From a virus (Duplodnaviria > Heunggongvirae > Uroviricota > Caudoviricetes), in IMG/VR virus record IMGVR_UViG_3300045988_146535: a DNA stretch of 36,473 bases; one strand, 5' to 3'. The notes under the pieces were generated by a model. It was not told the origin of the DNA, made no database searches, and saw only the letters and a program-made list of their open reading frames with translations. The translations under genes were made by a program, and so were the position numbers. Below are positions 8,166-32,448 of the stretch, piece after piece. The stretch's first letter is position 1. Every line of letters starts with the position of its first letter.

Positions 8166-9998
8166 CTACCAAAATCGGGTATAGCCAACATCGTGATTTA
8201 TATCAATGCCACTGGAGCGTGTTTCCGTAACCCGCATACCTGATGGCATATTTATAAATGATACCTTGATCTCACCATCAACTTTTGGCGCGGTAGCTTT
8301 ATTAATCATGAAAGGATTCGGGCCTGTGGCACCGGAGGCGTTGTTTGCCTGAGCCGGATCCACCTCCGGATAAGGAGTGTATCCCCGTGGCGGTATTCCC
8401 GTCCCATAAGCATCATAAGCACCCGCGCCCCACTGCGCCGAGTTAATGGCATCGACCGTGTCACCGGAACTGTCGGTAAACCACTCAATAATTGGCTTCA
8501 GCTTATCCCACATATCCTGAAACCACTTAACAACCGGTCCCCAGTTATTGATCACCATCCCCAGCGGCGACCAGGCAAAAACCTTCTTCAGAAGTTCCCA
8601 GCCAGCCTCAAAATAAGGACTAATGGTTTCCCAGAGCTTCTTGAAATAAGGTCCGACAACATCCCAGTTAGTGATAATTAATCCCGCAGCCAGGGCTATC
8701 GCCGTCGCAATCATGCCAATCGGCGTCATCGACATAATCCTGCTGACAATACTGATGGCACCGCCAACGCCCATCAATCCCAGTTTCAGAATCGCAAGAC
8801 CGGCAGCAAGCCCGACGACGCCGCGAATAACCCGGGGATTTTCATCCGCAAACTTCGTGAATTTTTCCCCCAACTCCCCCAGCCATTGCGTGATATTTTT
8901 GGCGTCACCAGAAAATGCGCCGCCAATAGCCGCAAGGCCGTTAGTTGCGGTCCCCGTCATTGCCTCCCACAGGTTGGACAGCGTACCAAGCTGGGCCTGA
9001 ACACGTTTATTCAGGCTGGCCTGTTTATTCATCTTCTGCTGGATCTGATCGTAGCCATCCTTTCCTTTATCGATTAGTGCATTGACCACCTGAAGGGTTT
9101 CGGCATCATCACCAAATATTGCCTTAAGTACACCTGTTCGCTTAACGTCGGTCAGTTTTCGCAGCTTTGCCAGTTGCCTGAACATGTTATCAAGACCGCC
9201 AAAACTCCCTTTGCCGTCAGTAAAATCGAGCTGTACCCCGAGTTTCTGGCGGGCCATGACTTTATTGACGTCCCTGATTTTCTTAACGCTTAATCCGGAC
9301 TGGATAACTTTTCGCAGGGCATTACCTGCCGACTCCCCGTTCATCCCCATCTGATCCATCATGACGCTGATGGGGGCAAGGCTCTGTGCAGCCTGAAGAC
9401 CGTCCTTGTTCACCATCTTCAGAACAGAACTGGTTTTAGTGAAGAAGGACAACATGTTGGTATCGTCAACGCCCAGATAAAACGCCTTCTGGATAGTGTC
9501 GAACAGCCCCATCATGTCTTCTGACGCCGTTCCGGTAGCATCCTGCATCTTTGCAGCAAACTCAGCAGCCGCTTCCGGTGTTTTTTTCAGTTGTACCGCA
9601 AGATAAGCTGTCGCTTTACCCACACCACCCAGGATGTTTTCTGCCGGGATCCCCTGACGCACCAGCATCTGCATCATGTTCTGGAAATCAGCCGTTGTAC
9701 CGGGTAGCTGGTTACCCAGGCCAATAGCCAGTTTATTGATGTCCTGAAAGCTCTTTCCAACCTCGCCGTTCGCATCCATCATGGCGACTTTCAGCCCGGT
9801 GGCGGCGTTTTCCTGATCGGCATAAGATTTCAGGGAAAGCGTCAGACCCGCTGCCAGTCCGCCACCAAGCGCCAGCCCACCCTGTGACGCTTCTTCCGCC
9901 TGGCGTTTAAATCCCCGGATTTTCTTTTGCATTTTCGACAGCGCTGGAGAAAGCCTGTCGACACCGGTGATCAACGCCTTAAGCTCAAATTCAGCCAT
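8166..9998 (-). CDS. Tail tape measure protein
   Basis: 610 aa, Gly/Ala-rich with hydrophobic stretches; directly downstream of the frameshifted chaperone pair. Confidence 0.75.
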   Translation of the reverse strand: MAEFELKALITGVDRLSPALSKMQKKIRGFKRQAEEASQGGLALGGGLAAGLTLSLKSYADQENAATGLKVAMMDANGEVGKSFQDINKLAIGLGNQLPGTTADFQNMMQMLVRQGIPAENILGGVGKATAYLAVQLKKTPEAAAEFAAKMQDATGTASEDMMGLFDTIQKAFYLGVDDTNMLSFFTKTSSVLKMVNKDGLQAAQSLAPISVMMDQMGMNGESAGNALRKVIQSGLSVKKIRDVNKVMARQKLGVQLDFTDGKGSFGGLDNMFRQLAKLRKLTDVKRTGVLKAIFGDDAETLQVVNALIDKGKDGYDQIQQKMNKQASLNKRVQAQLGTLSNLWEAMTGTATNGLAAIGGAFSGDAKNITQWLGELGEKFTKFADENPRVIRGVVGLAAGLAILKLGLMGVGGAISIVSRIMSMTPIGMIATAIALAAGLIITNWDVVGPYFKKLWETISPYFEAGWELLKKVFAWSPLGMVINNWGPVVKWFQDMWDKLKPIIEWFTDSSGDTVDAINSAQWGAGAYDAYGTGIPPRGYTPYPEVDPAQANNASGATGPNPFMINKATAPKVDGEIKVSFINMPSGMRVTETRSSGIDINHDVGYTRFW

Positions 9999-29822: not shown

Positions 29823-30382
29823 GCGTTAGTTTCTCCACAGTCACGACACGCCACGGCGCCCGGAGCTGCACACTCGCGGGCGTCATTACTTTCTGAAATG
29901 CAAAAGATTTTGTAGACCAGTGCTGCATGCTCCTGCAGCTTCGAAATTGAGAGATACAGCTCGTCGTTAATTGCTGTCTTCTCATGCGGTTCCACTACAC
30001 CGTCTTCGATTGCTGAACGAATCTGTCTGGAATAACTGCCAATCTGTTCAATGACTTCCAGCAGGCGCTGGTTGATATCAGCGTTGTCCACATCCTCGAC
30101 GTCAGGAAGAGACACAAAGACGCCATTTGCAGACTGCGCCACAGCATCAGCAATGAAGTGAGTGCCACCAGCACGCTGTAAAACCATTGCCCATCCCAGC
30201 GGGAAAATCTGATCGCCATCTGCACGAAGGCGGTTGAATAAAGCGTTTTCTGTTACATCGAGCCAGTCAGCCGCTTCAGCGTAACCCCCCGGCAACGCCG
30301 CGATAGTTTTTCTGACAGCTTTCACGTACCACTCAGGCTGTTTTTCTATTTTCCAGTGATGCTTACCCACGATTAGCCTCAT
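29819..30382 (-). CDS. YdaT-like early regulatory protein
   Basis: 187 aa immediately downstream of the Cro-like gene; weak resemblance to the YdaT family from memory. Confidence 0.4.
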
Positions 30383-30413
30383 CGTTCTGTGGTTAAAAAT
30401 TGAAAGTGTTCTG

Positions 30414-30614
30414 CTAATCTTTCGGATAGATATCCGGTCTTAAGTCAGATTTCGTAATTGCACCTGACGTGCATTGCTCAAGTTTTTTAGCCAGCACAAA
30501 ACTGGCTTTTTTATAGCCATTGAAAACCAGCCGTAAGTAGCCAGGTGTTGAGCCAACTTTTCCGGCCAACTCGCCCTGCTGTTCTTTGGTTAAAGAGTCC
30601 CAATACGCTTTCAT
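30414..30614 (-). CDS. Cro-like (YdaS-type) HTH repressor
   Basis: 66 aa MKAYWDSLTKEQQGELAGKVGSTPGYLRLVFNGYKKASFVLAKKLEQCTSGAITKSDLRPDIYPKD; GGAGG ribosome-binding site 10 nt upstream; divergent from cI. Confidence 0.7.
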   Translation of the reverse strand: MKAYWDSLTKEQQGELAGKVGSTPGYLRLVFNGYKKASFVLAKKLEQCTSGAITKSDLRPDIYPKD

Positions 30615-30704
30615 ACAATATGTACCTCCGGTATACATATTACATGATTGAAATGAACCTTCAAGATACTTGTACCTTAACGGTACAAGGGTTTTAATTT
30701 TGTT
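30615..30704. promoter_or_regulatory. Immunity-region operator/promoter (divergent pR / pRM-like)
   Basis: Perfect palindrome CTTGTACC-ttaac-GGTACAAG (30669-30689) and imperfect ATGTACC-tcc-GGTATACAT (30620-30638); candidate -10 TTTAAT at 30693-30698 gives a near-leaderless cI. Confidence 0.5.
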
Positions 30705-31379
30705 ATGAAAACAATCCATGACATCCGGCGGTCTAACGCCAGAAAACTGAGAGATGGTGTTGGCGGGAATTCTTCCTTTGCCACTATGATTGATCGCGAG
30801 CCAACCCAGACCAGCAGGTTTATGGGAGATGGTGCTACTAAAAATATCGGTGACAGCATGGCACGACACATCGAAAAATGTTTCGACCTGCCTGTCGGAT
30901 GGCTCGATCAAGAACACCAGACAACGAACATCACAAAAAAACCTGATGTTTCAATCACTAATAAACAAATCACATTAGTCCCTGTCATATCATGGGTACA
31001 GGCCGGAGCATGGAAAGAAGTTGGATATTCTGAGGTTGATTTGAGCACAGCAGAAACGTATCCCTGCCCTGTCCCCTGTGGGGAAATGACTTATATCTTG
31101 CGGGTGATAGGTGATTCAATGATTGATGAGTACCGCCCGGGAGACATGATTTTTGTCGATCCTGAAGTACCTGCCTGCCACGGTGACGACGTTATTGCAT
31201 TGATGCACGATACAGGTGAAACCACCTTCAAAAGGTTGATAGAAGATGGGACACAGCGTTATCTCAAAGCGTTAAACCCAAACTGGCCTGAGCCTTACAT
31301 TAAGATCAACGGTAATTGCTCTATAATTGGTACAGTGATTTTCTCAGGAAAACCAAGAAGATACAAAATCAAAGCCTAA
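30705..31379 (+). CDS. cI-like repressor (HTH plus LexA/S24-type autocleavage domain)
   Basis: 224 aa; C-terminal VIGDSM...GD...V and K-containing S24 peptidase-like region. Confidence 0.8.
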   Translation: MKTIHDIRRSNARKLRDGVGGNSSFATMIDREPTQTSRFMGDGATKNIGDSMARHIEKCFDLPVGWLDQEHQTTNITKKPDVSITNKQITLVPVISWVQAGAWKEVGYSEVDLSTAETYPCPVPCGEMTYILRVIGDSMIDEYRPGDMIFVDPEVPACHGDDVIALMHDTGETTFKRLIEDGTQRYLKALNPNWPEPYIKINGNCSIIGTVIFSGKPRRYKIKA

Positions 31380-31390
31380 TCAATGTTTAT

Positions 31391-31415
31391 GAACCTGCTT
31401 CGGCAGGTTTTTTTA
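31391..31415 (+). terminator. Intrinsic terminator after cI
   Basis: AACCTGC-ttcg-GCAGGTT followed by TTTTTTT. Confidence 0.6.
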
Positions 31416-31418
31416 TAC

Positions 31419-31452
31419 TTGACAATGTACCTTTGAGATACATAATGTACCC
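31419..31452 (+). promoter_or_regulatory. pL-like early-left promoter with flanking operator repeats
   Basis: TTGACA (31419-31424), 16-bp spacer, CATAAT (31441-31446); 8-bp direct repeat AATGTACC at 31424-31431 and 31444-31451 shares the TGTACC half-site of the cI/cro operators. Confidence 0.5.
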
Positions 31453-31572
31453 AAGAGAAACAACAAACAGGCAGGTCGTCCACGAAGTAGCCCCCTGGAG
31501 CATATGAAGTCCAGGATGATTCGTTGAGTCATGTTGTGCCACTAGGCACTCATGTTAAAGCAGGTGTATGAA

Positions 31573-31848
31573 ATGAAAGTCCAGATTTTAAACAATAACT
31601 GTGAAGTCGTTTGGTCATACGACATAGCCGCCCCTGTAGATCAGAGCGGCGATAGCTGGACCAATGGGAAACATCAGATTATGGCTGGAGTTGTGTTCTC
31701 TTTACGCCGTGCTTTGGAACAGGCTGAAGTATTTCCATCAGACCCTGAATGGAAATGGCCTTTTTCTATTTGTCCAAATTCGGAGAGCACATTTCAGAAA
31801 ATTGGTCAGAAAGTCGCACTCGAAGAGCATCAGCCAACTGTTTCCTGA
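31573..31848 (+). CDS. Hypothetical protein, first gene of the early-left transcript
   Basis: 91 aa from the internal ATG with an AGGTG ribosome-binding site (ORF 31552-31848). Confidence 0.4.
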   Translation: MKVQILNNNCEVVWSYDIAAPVDQSGDSWTNGKHQIMAGVVFSLRRALEQAEVFPSDPEWKWPFSICPNSESTFQKIGQKVALEEHQPTVS

Positions 31849-32011
31849 TTTTTTCAGGTAACTCGTCGGCATCGCAGAAACAACAACGCTCGATCATGTT
31901 GAAAGCCGATTCGTAGAACTGTTTCTGCTGAGTGTCGCTGAGACAGGAAAAGAGCGACGTTACGATGATTTTATTAATTGCATTATCAAGTTCTTTTTCA
32001 TCAAAAGTCAT
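31766..32011 (-). CDS. Hypothetical protein (antisense to the early-left transcript)
   Basis: 81 aa; AGGAAA ribosome-binding site 6 nt upstream of the ATG; Cys pairs (CCFC); overlaps the 3' end of the plus-strand ORF. Confidence 0.35.
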   Translation of the reverse strand: MTFDEKELDNAINKIIVTSLFSCLSDTQQKQFYESAFNMIERCCFCDADELPEKIRKQLADALRVRLSDQFSEMCSPNLDK

Positions 32012-32265
32012 TTGATTTTCCTTTTATGTATACGGGCTTAAAAGGATACCACCGAGCCTGAAGTGGTGAAAAGACAGGCACATAACAGCTAAGTATTTTC
32101 AACCAAAGAGAATCCTTAGCGTTGTGGTGAATGCGGCTCAGCGCACGCGGGTTAAGGTTGAGGCTGACAGTCGACCTTCTGTGGATACCCACCCGCCTGG
32201 TGTGCAACCTTCGCCAGGCACCGGGAGGCACCCGGCACCACAACTTTATGCTGTGTGTAGTCCTG

Positions 32266-32310
32266 GCGGTACCAGCTTGTACCCTTGCTTCCGGCTGGTA
32301 CCGTCCTTTT
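32266..32310 (+). terminator. Candidate intrinsic terminator inside the structured early-left leader
   Basis: CGGTACCAGC (32266-32275) pairs with GCTGGTACCG (32293-32302), followed by tccTTTTT. Confidence 0.35.
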
Positions 32311-32448
32311 TACAAAACAGAGAAGAGCATCACCGGACGACGGGCTCATAACCCAATCCATCCGGGCGGCTGCCACCGCAGGTGTTCTTCTCTGTTTTGT
32401 GGAGAAACTAATCGGCCTTGCAGGGTCGATATGATGAGGAGCAGCAAA

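Follow-up and report, generated by a model that had tools for sequence, protein, structure and literature searches.

What do the TGTACC repeats on either side of a phage repressor gene do, and how is the mRNA of that repressor begun? The question is raised by a 36,473-nucleotide stretch of Caudoviricetes DNA (IMG/VR record IMGVR_UViG_3300045988_146535), referred to here as the window. A first-pass annotation of its sequence had pointed to operator half-sites shared by an immunity switch and a pL-like promoter, and to an apparently leaderless cI. Our analysis indicates that positions 30414–31462 very probably constitute a lambda-type bistable immunity switch, in which five predicted operators are arranged around three promoters (Table 1). 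Judged by its sequence, the module is one already in the databases, that of Shigella phage SfV and the Escherichia coli prophage e14.

Table 1. Features of the switch region in window coordinates (operators OR1–OR3, OL1 and OL2 are predicted)
Feature	Position	Strand	Description
cro (YmfT/CroE)	30414–30614	-	66-aa lytic repressor; ORF; named cro in SfV, ymfT in E. coli
OR1	30621–30637		TGTACC-TCCGG-TATACA; 2 mismatches; PWM 23.4, second best in window
pR (predicted)	30637–30664	-	-10 TAATAT 30642–30637; 16-bp spacer; -35 TTGAAG 30664–30659; read from sequence
OR2	30654–30670		TGAACC-TTCAA-GATACT; weak, 3 mismatches; PWM 11.5, fourth in window
pRM	30670–30705	+	-35 TTGTAC 30670–30675; 17-bp spacer; -10 TTTAAT 30693–30698; +1 30705; conserved geometry; K-12 start site
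OR3	30671–30687		TGTACC-TTAAC-GGTACA; 0 mismatches, sole perfect palindrome; PWM 22.6
cI (YmfK/CohE)	30705–31379	+	224 aa; N-terminal HTH domain and S24 autopeptidase domain
Intrinsic terminator of cI transcript	31391–31417	+	8-bp stem, then T-run; annotated in SfV and Ayreon
pL	31419–31453	+	-35 TTGACA 31419–31424; 16-bp spacer; -10 CATAAT 31441–31446; 11/12 consensus
OL1	31426–31442		TGTACC-TTTGA-GATACA; 1 mismatch; PWM 26.4, best in window; between pL -35 and -10
OL2	31446–31462		TGTACC-CAAGA-GAAACA; weak, 2 mismatches; PWM 9.8, fifth in window; about -7 to +10 of pL
Structured leader RNA	31458–31532	+	~75 nt, 5' end of pL transcript; covariance model match 80.9 bits

An Immunity Region of the SfV/e14 Type

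DNA identity to SfV is 98.1% over window positions 30300–31700, and some E. coli chromosomes match the switch region at 100% DNA identity. The K-12 YmfK protein is 100% identical to the cI of the window. At the DNA level, the OL side of the K-12 switch is identical and the OR side has two base differences; within pRM the sole difference falls at 30702, among the 6 nt that separate the -10 from the ATG. Only point differences separate the SfV and e14 switches from that of the window, among them the right half of OR1, which is TATACA in the window but TGTACA in K-12 and in most of the relatives. The mosaics differ further on, the gene after the pL leader being ymfJ in e14 and of the SfV orf33 type in the window.

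The two regulatory genes, named cI and cro in SfV, are divergent and separated by a 90-bp gap. Cro has a weak Pfam match (YdaS_toxin/HTH_3) and belongs with phrog_35, "transcriptional repressor" (E 3e-15). The cI protein falls into phrog_4 and phrog_12107 (the latter by its N-terminal domain, E 9e-13), both of them repressor families, and matches Pfam Peptidase_S24 at E 1.5e-26. Its C-terminal domain matches that of lambda CI (E 2e-9, with the lysine of FK(R/K)L aligned), and the autopeptidase residues can be read from the sequence as Ala100-Gly101 (VQ-A100-G101), Ser138 (GDS138M) and Lys176 (FK176RL). The N-terminal DNA-binding domain contains a REPTQTSR stretch, taken to be the recognition helix, which is kept in most of the relative loci, with single substitutions in four. 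The gene just downstream of cro, ymfL, encodes a member of the CII-like activator family (Pfam Phage_CP76; phrog_101).

The GenBank record of SfV labels the equivalent of window positions ~30620–30688 as a "putative operator region" and also annotates the terminator of the cI transcript. Annotation of the SfV/e14 immunity region goes back to 2002, and ymfK mRNA has been known to be leaderless since it was mapped in 2014; because both operators and leaderless cI mRNA are essentially on record, the finding is correct but not new, and adds little. What is gained is a cleaner parts list for a binding study, consisting of five operators with their consensus, three promoters with exact geometry and a conserved weak-site design. 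A literature search covering part of the SfV/e14 papers found no footprint, EMSA or reporter data for YmfK/CohE or YmfT/CroE. In E. coli K-12 the SOS-inducible division inhibitor YmfM is under the control of the e14 switch (bioRxiv 10.1101/2020.11.19.390815), which gives a precise map of the operators a certain practical value.

Operator Sites and Their Conservation

The predicted operator is 17 bp long, with the consensus (A/T)TGTACC-N5-GGTACA(T/A). When up to two mismatches are allowed, TGTACC-N5-GGTACA has four matches in the 36.5 kb, compared with 0.83 expected, and four or more were seen in 1 of 100 shuffles. All four matches lie within ~260 bp of intergenic DNA, in the two gaps that flank cI. 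The TGTACC hexamer occurs 26 times in the window (11.1 expected), a count reached in none of 100 shuffles.

Both palindromes that the first-pass annotation had placed between cI and cro are real. The perfect one (30669–30689) reads CTTGTACC-TTAAC-GGTACAAG, with 8-bp arms, and the imperfect one (30620–30638) reads ATGTACC-TCCGG-TATACAT, with two mismatches to TGTACC-N5-GGTACA. The OR region nevertheless holds three sites and not two, OR2 having been overlooked. At pL, TGTACC does recur at 31426 and 31446, flanking the -10, as had been described; each copy is, however, better taken as the left half of its own 17-bp inverted repeat (OL1 and OL2) than as part of a direct repeat.

For conservation we used 16 loci of other genera (cI 73%–88% identical), which bring the set to 18 sequences from about 17 genera. 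Across the 16 loci the half-sites are invariant and the N5 spacers vary freely, and across all 18 sequences the -10 hexamers and TTGACA are invariant as well. OR1 extends from about -7 to +10 relative to the predicted pR start, and the Shine-Dalgarno sequence of cro (GGAGG, - strand, 30625–30629) falls inside it; TGTACCTCC and TACA of this site are invariant in the 18 sequences. The arms of OR3 are invariant around a spacer that is free to vary across genera, and OL1 is likewise conserved in relatives with a free spacer. In OR2, ATGAACC is invariant in 18/18 sequences, its T-to-A deviation included. OL2 has an invariant left half and a loosely conserved right half (G-n-A-A-C).

A PWM trained solely on the relatives' sites from other genera, with OR2 and OL2 outside the training set, gives the five sites ranks 1–5 window-wide (26.4, 23.4, 22.6, 11.5 and 9.8). 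No further operators were found in the window outside the switch: the highest score there is 3.8, whereas the null maxima average 6.6. Since the training sites are orthologous, the high scores of OR1, OR3 and OL1 partly reflect homology. Those of OR2 and OL2 fall inside the best-chance range (null maximum 14.7), so the support for these two comes from position and conservation, not from score alone. Enrichment, conservation and PWM ranking together support the earlier proposal of predicted half-sites shared by the immunity switch and pL. The sequence comparisons support a set of five sites that share one consensus, overlap the predicted pR, pRM and pL, and are phylogenetically footprinted.

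Promoters and the Leaderless cI mRNA

The near-consensus sequence of the strong promoter that had been described just after the cI terminator is present. Its TTGACA and ACATAATGTAC are invariant in the 18 sequences, the record of phage Ayreon has a promoter annotated at the same position, and transcription would start near 31453. The stem of the terminator itself shows compensated changes in other genera. The predicted pR and pRM have 8/12 consensus matches each, below the threshold of the promoter scan, and neither was called. In relatives the pR -10 keeps its position and reads TAATAT or CATAAT, and the -35 retains its TTG; from these features we infer the promoter and its start site. OR2 lies over the pR -35, with its centre at -43 from the cI start, and abuts OR3, which occupies -34 to -18 of pRM and shares bases with the -35 of that promoter.

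A -10 shortly before the cI ATG, together with the lack of a Shine-Dalgarno sequence, had led to the suggestion of a leaderless pRM-type mRNA, and both observations stand. TTTAAT ends 6 nt before the cI ATG, a distance at which the canonical +1 falls on the A of that codon. Of the 18 sequences, 17 have nnTAAT at this distance and one has it at 7 nt, and the 6 nt in between are unconserved in relatives. None of the 18 sequences has a conserved Shine-Dalgarno sequence ahead of the cI ATG. In K-12, dRNA-seq puts the ymfK start site (RVS_(I)-1202156, equal to the annotated start) at the first base of the start codon, a leader of 0 nt (Romero et al. 2014, PMC4681348), and ymfK is counted there among five leaderless mRNAs of E. 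coli. The fixed distance of the -10 and this start site support a leaderless pRM-type mRNA for the cI of the window, the start having been mapped in K-12.

Proposed Operation of the Switch

In the mechanism that we propose, a cI dimer would bind the 17-bp operators, three of them between cro and cI and two after the cI terminator. At each lytic promoter one operator, beginning at the last T of the -10, would cover the start site (OR1 for pR, OL2 for pL), and a second would lie over the -35 or the spacer (OR2 for pR, OL1 for pL). With both elements covered, bound repressor would exclude RNA polymerase from pR and pL. Maintenance of cI would depend on pRM, with its -35 (TTGTAC) inside OR3 and TTTAAT as its -10, and because the transcript would begin at the A of the AUG, translation of cI would proceed with no Shine-Dalgarno sequence. 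If lambda is a guide, occupancy of the weak OR2 by repressor may stimulate pRM, and repressor or Cro on OR3 may turn it off. DNA damage would bring about RecA-stimulated self-cleavage of cI at Ala100-Gly101, and both lytic operons would then be derepressed. Here we infer the pairing of proteins with sites, the order of affinities and the activation from OR2.

In K-12, one iModulon contains e14 genes of either arm together with the SOS genes sulA and recN. Its e14 members include ymfJ, ymfH, xisE and intE from the pL arm and ymfT, ymfL, ymfM and ymfN from the pR arm, and its activity is highest when cells meet peroxide stress or lack fur function through mutation.

Comparison with Known Repressor Systems

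Lambda has divergent cI and cro genes and 17-bp partially symmetric operators, three in OR and three in OL, that lie 23–24 bp apart. Its CI activates pRM from an OR2 centred near -42/-43, 6 nt separate the -10 from the ATG of cI so that the mRNA starts at the AUG, and the site equivalent to OR3 is the weakest for CI. The window shares the divergent gene pair, the 17-bp partly symmetric operators, their number in OR, the further sites at a pL that follows cI and points the same way, the position of the -10 and an OR2 centred near -42/-43 of pRM; the S24 C-terminal domain of its cI is homologous to that of lambda CI. It differs in operator sequence, in having two OL sites and not three, in being without N, nut sites and rex genes, and in a cI N-terminal domain that has no detectable relation to that of lambda CI and is nearest to 5d50. 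OR2 and OR3 also abut here: 17 bp, or about 1.6 helical turns, separates their centres in place of 23–24 bp, and the perfect site lies over pRM. Given this spacing, simultaneous or cooperative occupancy of the two is uncertain. As OR3 is the sole perfect palindrome and sits on the pRM -35, while its lambda equivalent is the weakest site for CI, a lambda-like hierarchy of affinities may not hold. A perfect site on the pRM -35, abutting OR2, could mean an autoregulatory logic unlike that of lambda.

Two other systems offer partial likenesses. The OL of HK022 carries ATGTAC-N5-GTACTT and ATGAAC-N5-GTACAT, which resemble the half-site of the window, but the TGTAC cores are 5 bp apart there and 7 bp apart here, and the N-terminal sequence of HK022 CI is unrelated to that of the window cI. 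Among solved structures, PDB 5d50, the antirepressor-controlled Rep of Salmonella phage SPC32H, comes closest to the DNA-binding domain at the N terminus of cI, the match being limited to cI residues 1–76 (aligned with residues 2–77 of that repressor, E 9e-4). The 5d50 repressor is presumably inactivated by its antirepressor and not by self-cleavage, whereas the match of the C-terminal half of cI is to the self-cleaving S24 domain found in lambda CI, UmuD and LexA.

Alternative Explanations

OR3 could be the primary high-affinity site for cI, giving tight LexA-like autorepression without positive autoregulation from OR2, which would then block the pR -35 or serve Cro. OR3 alone has no mismatches, with a PWM score (22.6) on a par with that of OR1, and it covers -34 to -18 of pRM. 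OR2 directly adjoins it, unlike the operators of lambda with their wider spacing, and a T-to-A deviation in OR2 that is invariant in 18/18 sequences suggests a deliberately different site. Operator symmetry, however, predicts affinity poorly, and OR2 is centred at -43, where lambda CI sits when it activates pRM. In K-12 cells that carry e14, moreover, pRM is active, with a Class I start site (PMC4681348). We regard autorepression of this kind as possible but somewhat improbable, and continue to favor the lambda-type switch with a leaderless maintenance transcript.

It is unlikely that cI is made mainly from a longer, leadered transcript, initiated at a YmfL-activated establishment promoter and running antisense through cro, with the leaderless mRNA as a minor product. 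The CII-like activator gene next to cro makes an establishment promoter during infection likely, but leadered and leaderless cI transcripts can coexist, and lambda uses both. A Shine-Dalgarno sequence upstream of the cI ATG is conserved in no relative, and the start codon is the only start site reported for K-12 ymfK (PMC4681348).

That the palindromes are hairpins (a terminator, an attenuator or another DNA or RNA structure) and not protein operators is highly improbable: although a terminator scan flags 30669–30689 followed by GGTTTTAATT as terminator-like, and an 8-bp-arm palindrome alone is unremarkable in a window with 95 inverted-repeat pairs of such size, the arms are invariant and never covarying, as expected of protein recognition rather than structure, and the T-run is not kept in relatives, two findings on which we rejected the perfect palindrome as a terminator, while the half-site recurs in the imperfect OR1, OR2 and OL2, which are incapable of good hairpins, and the sites are placed on promoter elements.

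A Structured Leader RNA Downstream of pL

The RNA at the start of the pL transcript, which formed no part of the first-pass finding, has a closing helix (31462–31467 with 31520–31525), an invariant 23-nt core (31470–31492) and a hairpin (31494–31498 with 31511–31515) with a conserved 12-nt loop. Compensatory changes are seen in 10/11 pairs, and covariation is 0.62, compared with 0.16 in shuffles. The same leader follows pL-type promoters of many unrelated immunity types, in enterobacterial, Yersinia, Pectobacterium and Aeromonas phages. A search of Rfam with 101 nt gave no match, even at E <= 10; none of the phage records examined carries an annotation for the leader, and its core sequence is not printed in the literature searched.

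Several candidate identities were considered. The putL element of HK022 is a ~73-nt structured RNA with which the pL transcript of that phage begins (PMC9378689), the same position and size as the leader, but it consists of two side-by-side stem-loops (PMC9378689), where the leader has a closing helix with an internal hairpin. Our covariance model (R1) has no match at putL or putR, and the leader is present in a single copy in the window; we do not assign it to the put family. Nor is it a nutL/nutR pair, there being no second copy downstream of cro, and its 12-nt loop is unlike boxB. Pairing of the P4 kind with a downstream STnc100-like RNA is not significant (-53.3 kcal/mol versus -49.3 +/- 4.4 kcal/mol in shuffles, 15% of which were as good), and the leader is not linked to that RNA, since K-12 e14 has the leader with a different downstream mosaic.

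No N homologue has been reported in SfV, SfII or SfIV (PMC3851460). We suggest tentatively, and with considerable doubt, that the leader may represent a new cis-acting class for read-through of downstream terminators in the early-left transcription of lambdoid phages that lack N. If shown to be a new antitermination element, it could matter more than the operators.

Recurrent Predicted Operators in the Immunity Switch

Several E. coli chromosomes match positions 30300–31700 of the window at 100% identity and name the genes there ymfK (LexA family), ymfT and ymfL; Shigella phage SfV matches at 98.1% identity, and its annotation reads cI and cro. The module is common, with matches in 2561 of 5426 complete E. 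coli genomes. The repressor encoded by cI is 100% identical to K-12 YmfK; its C-terminal half is nearest to the C-terminal domain of lambda CI (E 2e-9), and its N-terminal 76 residues align with the repressor of PDB 5d50 (E 9e-4) and with a PHROG repressor family (E 9e-13). The gene next after the divergent cro encodes YmfL, a CII-like regulator.

The palindromes that the first-pass annotation described between cI and cro are present, one perfect (CTTGTACC-TTAAC-GGTACAAG, 30669–30689) and one imperfect (30620–30638), as are the strong promoter (pL; TTGACA-16-CATAAT, 11/12 consensus matches) that it placed after the cI terminator and the TGTACC copies flanking that promoter's −10 (31426 and 31446). 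On its own, one such palindrome is unremarkable, since the window contains 95 inverted-repeat pairs of that size. Unlike the lone palindrome, the recurrence of the motif is remarkable: a search of the window for sites matching TGTACC-N5-GGTACA with at most two mismatches found four, against 0.83 expected, all within ~260 bp of intergenic DNA on both sides of cI. The supposed direct repeat at pL does hold TGTACC twice, but it is really two inverted-repeat operators 20 bp apart (OL1 and OL2), because both fit the full motif.

Features of the switch and of the region downstream of pL (window positions; promoters read from sequence)
Feature	Position	Strand	Details
cro	30614–30414	−	66-aa HTH protein, phrog_35
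OR1	30621–37		≤2 mismatches to TGTACC-N5-GGTACA
OR2	30654–30670		TGAACC-TTCAA-GATACT; 3 mismatches; adjoins perfect palindrome
OR3	30671–87		≤2 mismatches
pR	−35 30664–59; −10 30642–37	−	TTGAAG (inside OR2), 16-bp spacer, TAATAT
pRM	−35 30670–75; −10 30693–98; +1 30705	+	TTGTAC (inside OR3), 17-bp spacer, TTTAAT
cI	30705–31379	+	Peptidase_S24 domain, E 1.5e-26
cI terminator	31391–31417
pL	−35 31419–24; −10 31441–46	+	OL1 between hexamers
OL1	31426–42		≤2 mismatches
OL2	31446–62		≤2 mismatches
Structured RNA	31458–31532	+	~75 nt; covariance model 80.9 bits; 5′ end of pL transcript; unannotated

Conservation across Genera

Among loci encoding cI relatives, taken from one genome per species, 16 belong to other genera (Pseudocitrobacter, Klebsiella, Atlantibacter, Leclercia, Phytobacter, Enterobacter, Pantoea, Trabulsiella, Kluyvera, Limnobaculum, Rahnella, Edwardsiella and others), with cI 73%–88% identical. 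In the alignment of 18 sequences across the cro–cI gap, the invariant columns are TGTACCTCC and TACA in OR1, ATGAACC and part of GGTAC in OR2, CTTGTACC and G-TAC in OR3, the TAAT of the −10 hexamer and the cI ATG, while the 5-bp operator spacers and the 6 nt preceding the ATG vary freely. Around OL, it is TTGACA, TGTACC, G-TACATAATGTAC and the T-run of the terminator that do not vary. On the protein side, REPTQTSR in the N-terminal DNA-binding domain of cI, taken to be its recognition helix, is intact in 14 of the 18, and each of the remaining four has one substituted residue.

A weight matrix trained on OR1, OR3 and OL1 of non–E. coli loci only, with OR2 and OL2 excluded, ranks the five window sites first to fifth (26.4, 23.4, 22.6, 11.5 and 9.8), with the caveat that the three strong ones are orthologous to the training sites; the next best window score is 3.8, and null maxima average 6.6. 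The operator observation is confirmed, and its interpretation in the first-pass annotation is supported.

The left half of OR2, TGAACC (30654–30659), differs from TGTACC by a T-to-A change that is invariant in the window and all 17 related loci, which points away from drift and towards selection for a site that is purposely different or weaker. The right half of OR1, varying at 30633, reads TATACA in the window and TGTACA in K-12 e14 and most relatives; this natural variant, one step further off consensus, could slightly weaken pR repression. The OL/pL region of HK022 (8325–8375, − strand) has ATGTAC-TATTG-GTACTT and ATGAAC-TTTAA-GTACAT, closely resembling the window half-site and including the same TGAAC variant, although the half-site cores lie 2 bp closer together and the N-terminal sequence of HK022 CI looks unrelated. 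The likeness may reflect convergence or an old relationship.

Leaderless cI mRNA and Switch Design

Among the 18 sequences, cI has no conserved Shine-Dalgarno sequence. A −10-like hexamer ends exactly 6 nt before the ATG in 17 of them (7 nt in one locus), and a search for an in-frame start codon upstream of the cI ATG found none. Differential RNA-seq has mapped start sites in K-12 (Romero et al. 2014, PMC4681348), where only five mRNAs are listed as leaderless, that of e14 ymfK among them; the Class I start of ymfK (1202156) coincides with the annotated start (leader 0 nt). The leaderless mRNA first proposed from sequence is right, because that site is mapped, YmfK is identical and the cro–cI gap is near-identical (two bases differ, 30633 and 30702; OL is identical). 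Such an mRNA is already experimentally established for this module, in K-12. Since a CII-like regulator, YmfL, is encoded nearby, cI may well also have a leadered establishment transcript, which would be compatible with a leaderless maintenance mRNA.

A lambda-type switch is the best-supported reading of the overall design, and in our judgment a highly probable one. Each lytic promoter has one operator over about −7 to +10, because OR1 and OL2 begin at the last T of the pR and pL −10, and a second operator upstream; the cro Shine-Dalgarno sequence GGAGG sits within OR1. OR2 is centered at −43 relative to the cI start, which is where CI sits in lambda to activate pRM; OR3 covers −34 to −18 of pRM. 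We infer where pR and pL start and in which order the sites are bound. The sole perfect site, OR3, lies on the pRM −35 and adjoins OR2 (centers 17 bp apart), and tight simple autorepression of cI without positive control is a serious, though less probable, alternative. That the palindromes form a hairpin or terminator is very improbable, and we reject it because their arms are invariant without covarying and the following T-run is not conserved.

The finding is standard lambdoid biology from a prophage with a long record of study, already annotated and with its leaderless mRNA already measured. The 2004 abstract of Mehta, Casjens and Krishnaswamy reportedly identifies e14 repressor and Cro binding sites by comparison with SfV. 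The SfV GenBank record (U82619) has a "putative operator region" that maps to window ~30620–30688, and annotates the cI terminator; the phage Ayreon record has a promoter at the pL position. No footprint or EMSA for the predicted operators was found in the literature searched. In K-12, a single iModulon brings together genes from both e14 arms and the SOS genes sulA and recN (ymfK is not listed), which is indirect functional support for the switch.

A Structured RNA Downstream of pL

Immediately 3′ of OL2 lies a block conserved across genera, beyond which homology stops abruptly. The leader RNA consists of a closing helix, a 23-nt core that is invariant (GGCAGGACGCCCACGAAGTAGCC; two mismatches in the window copy) and a hairpin with the conserved loop GGCRUAYGAAKR. 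In 40 diverse copies, across the closing helix and internal hairpin, 93% of cells are paired, 10 of 11 pairs show compensatory changes, and covariation is 0.62, versus 0.16 in shuffles (0/500 reach 0.62) and at most 0.13 in slid controls. The covariance model finds a single copy in the window and one in K-12 e14, between ymfK and ymfJ.

The core has exact matches in at least 120 IMG/VR contigs. Among those listed, only 20 have an e14-type OL upstream; in the other 100 the core lies just 3′ of pL-like promoters with many operator sets, lambda-like ones included. The RNA is present in about 50 named phages, and unannotated in SfV, SfII, SfIV, ST64B, phiNP, ZF40, YeP1-3, mEp237, SPN3UB and others; it had no Rfam match and was not found in the literature searched. 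It is the one item here that merits a separate look. Its position is that of HK022 putL (PMC9378689), and N is reportedly missing from SfV-type phages (PMC3851460); a role in antitermination would be a reasonable guess. The covariance model has no match at HK022 putL or putR, and so no relation to put is detectable. A probable terminator downstream is the 3′ hairpin and U-run of an STnc100-like RNA.

That RNA (32099–32314, +) matches the gammaproteobacterial sRNA family STnc100 of Rfam at 41.4 bits (E 6e-7), below the gathering score of 47. Located between SfV orf33 and orf32 homologues, it ends in a terminator-like hairpin, whose loop holds a further TGTACC (32278–32283) lacking a partner half-site, probably by chance. 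Transcription-termination immunity was reportedly described for SfV by Roberts in 2007, and the STnc100-like RNA may relate to it; predicted pairing between this RNA and the pL leader was not significant. Just 3′ of that leader, two convergent ORFs, 31766–32011 (−) and 31552–31848 (+), share 83 bp; both are conserved in phages and of unknown function (phrog_3195 and phrog_3311), and transcription of the one on the − strand would run against pL.
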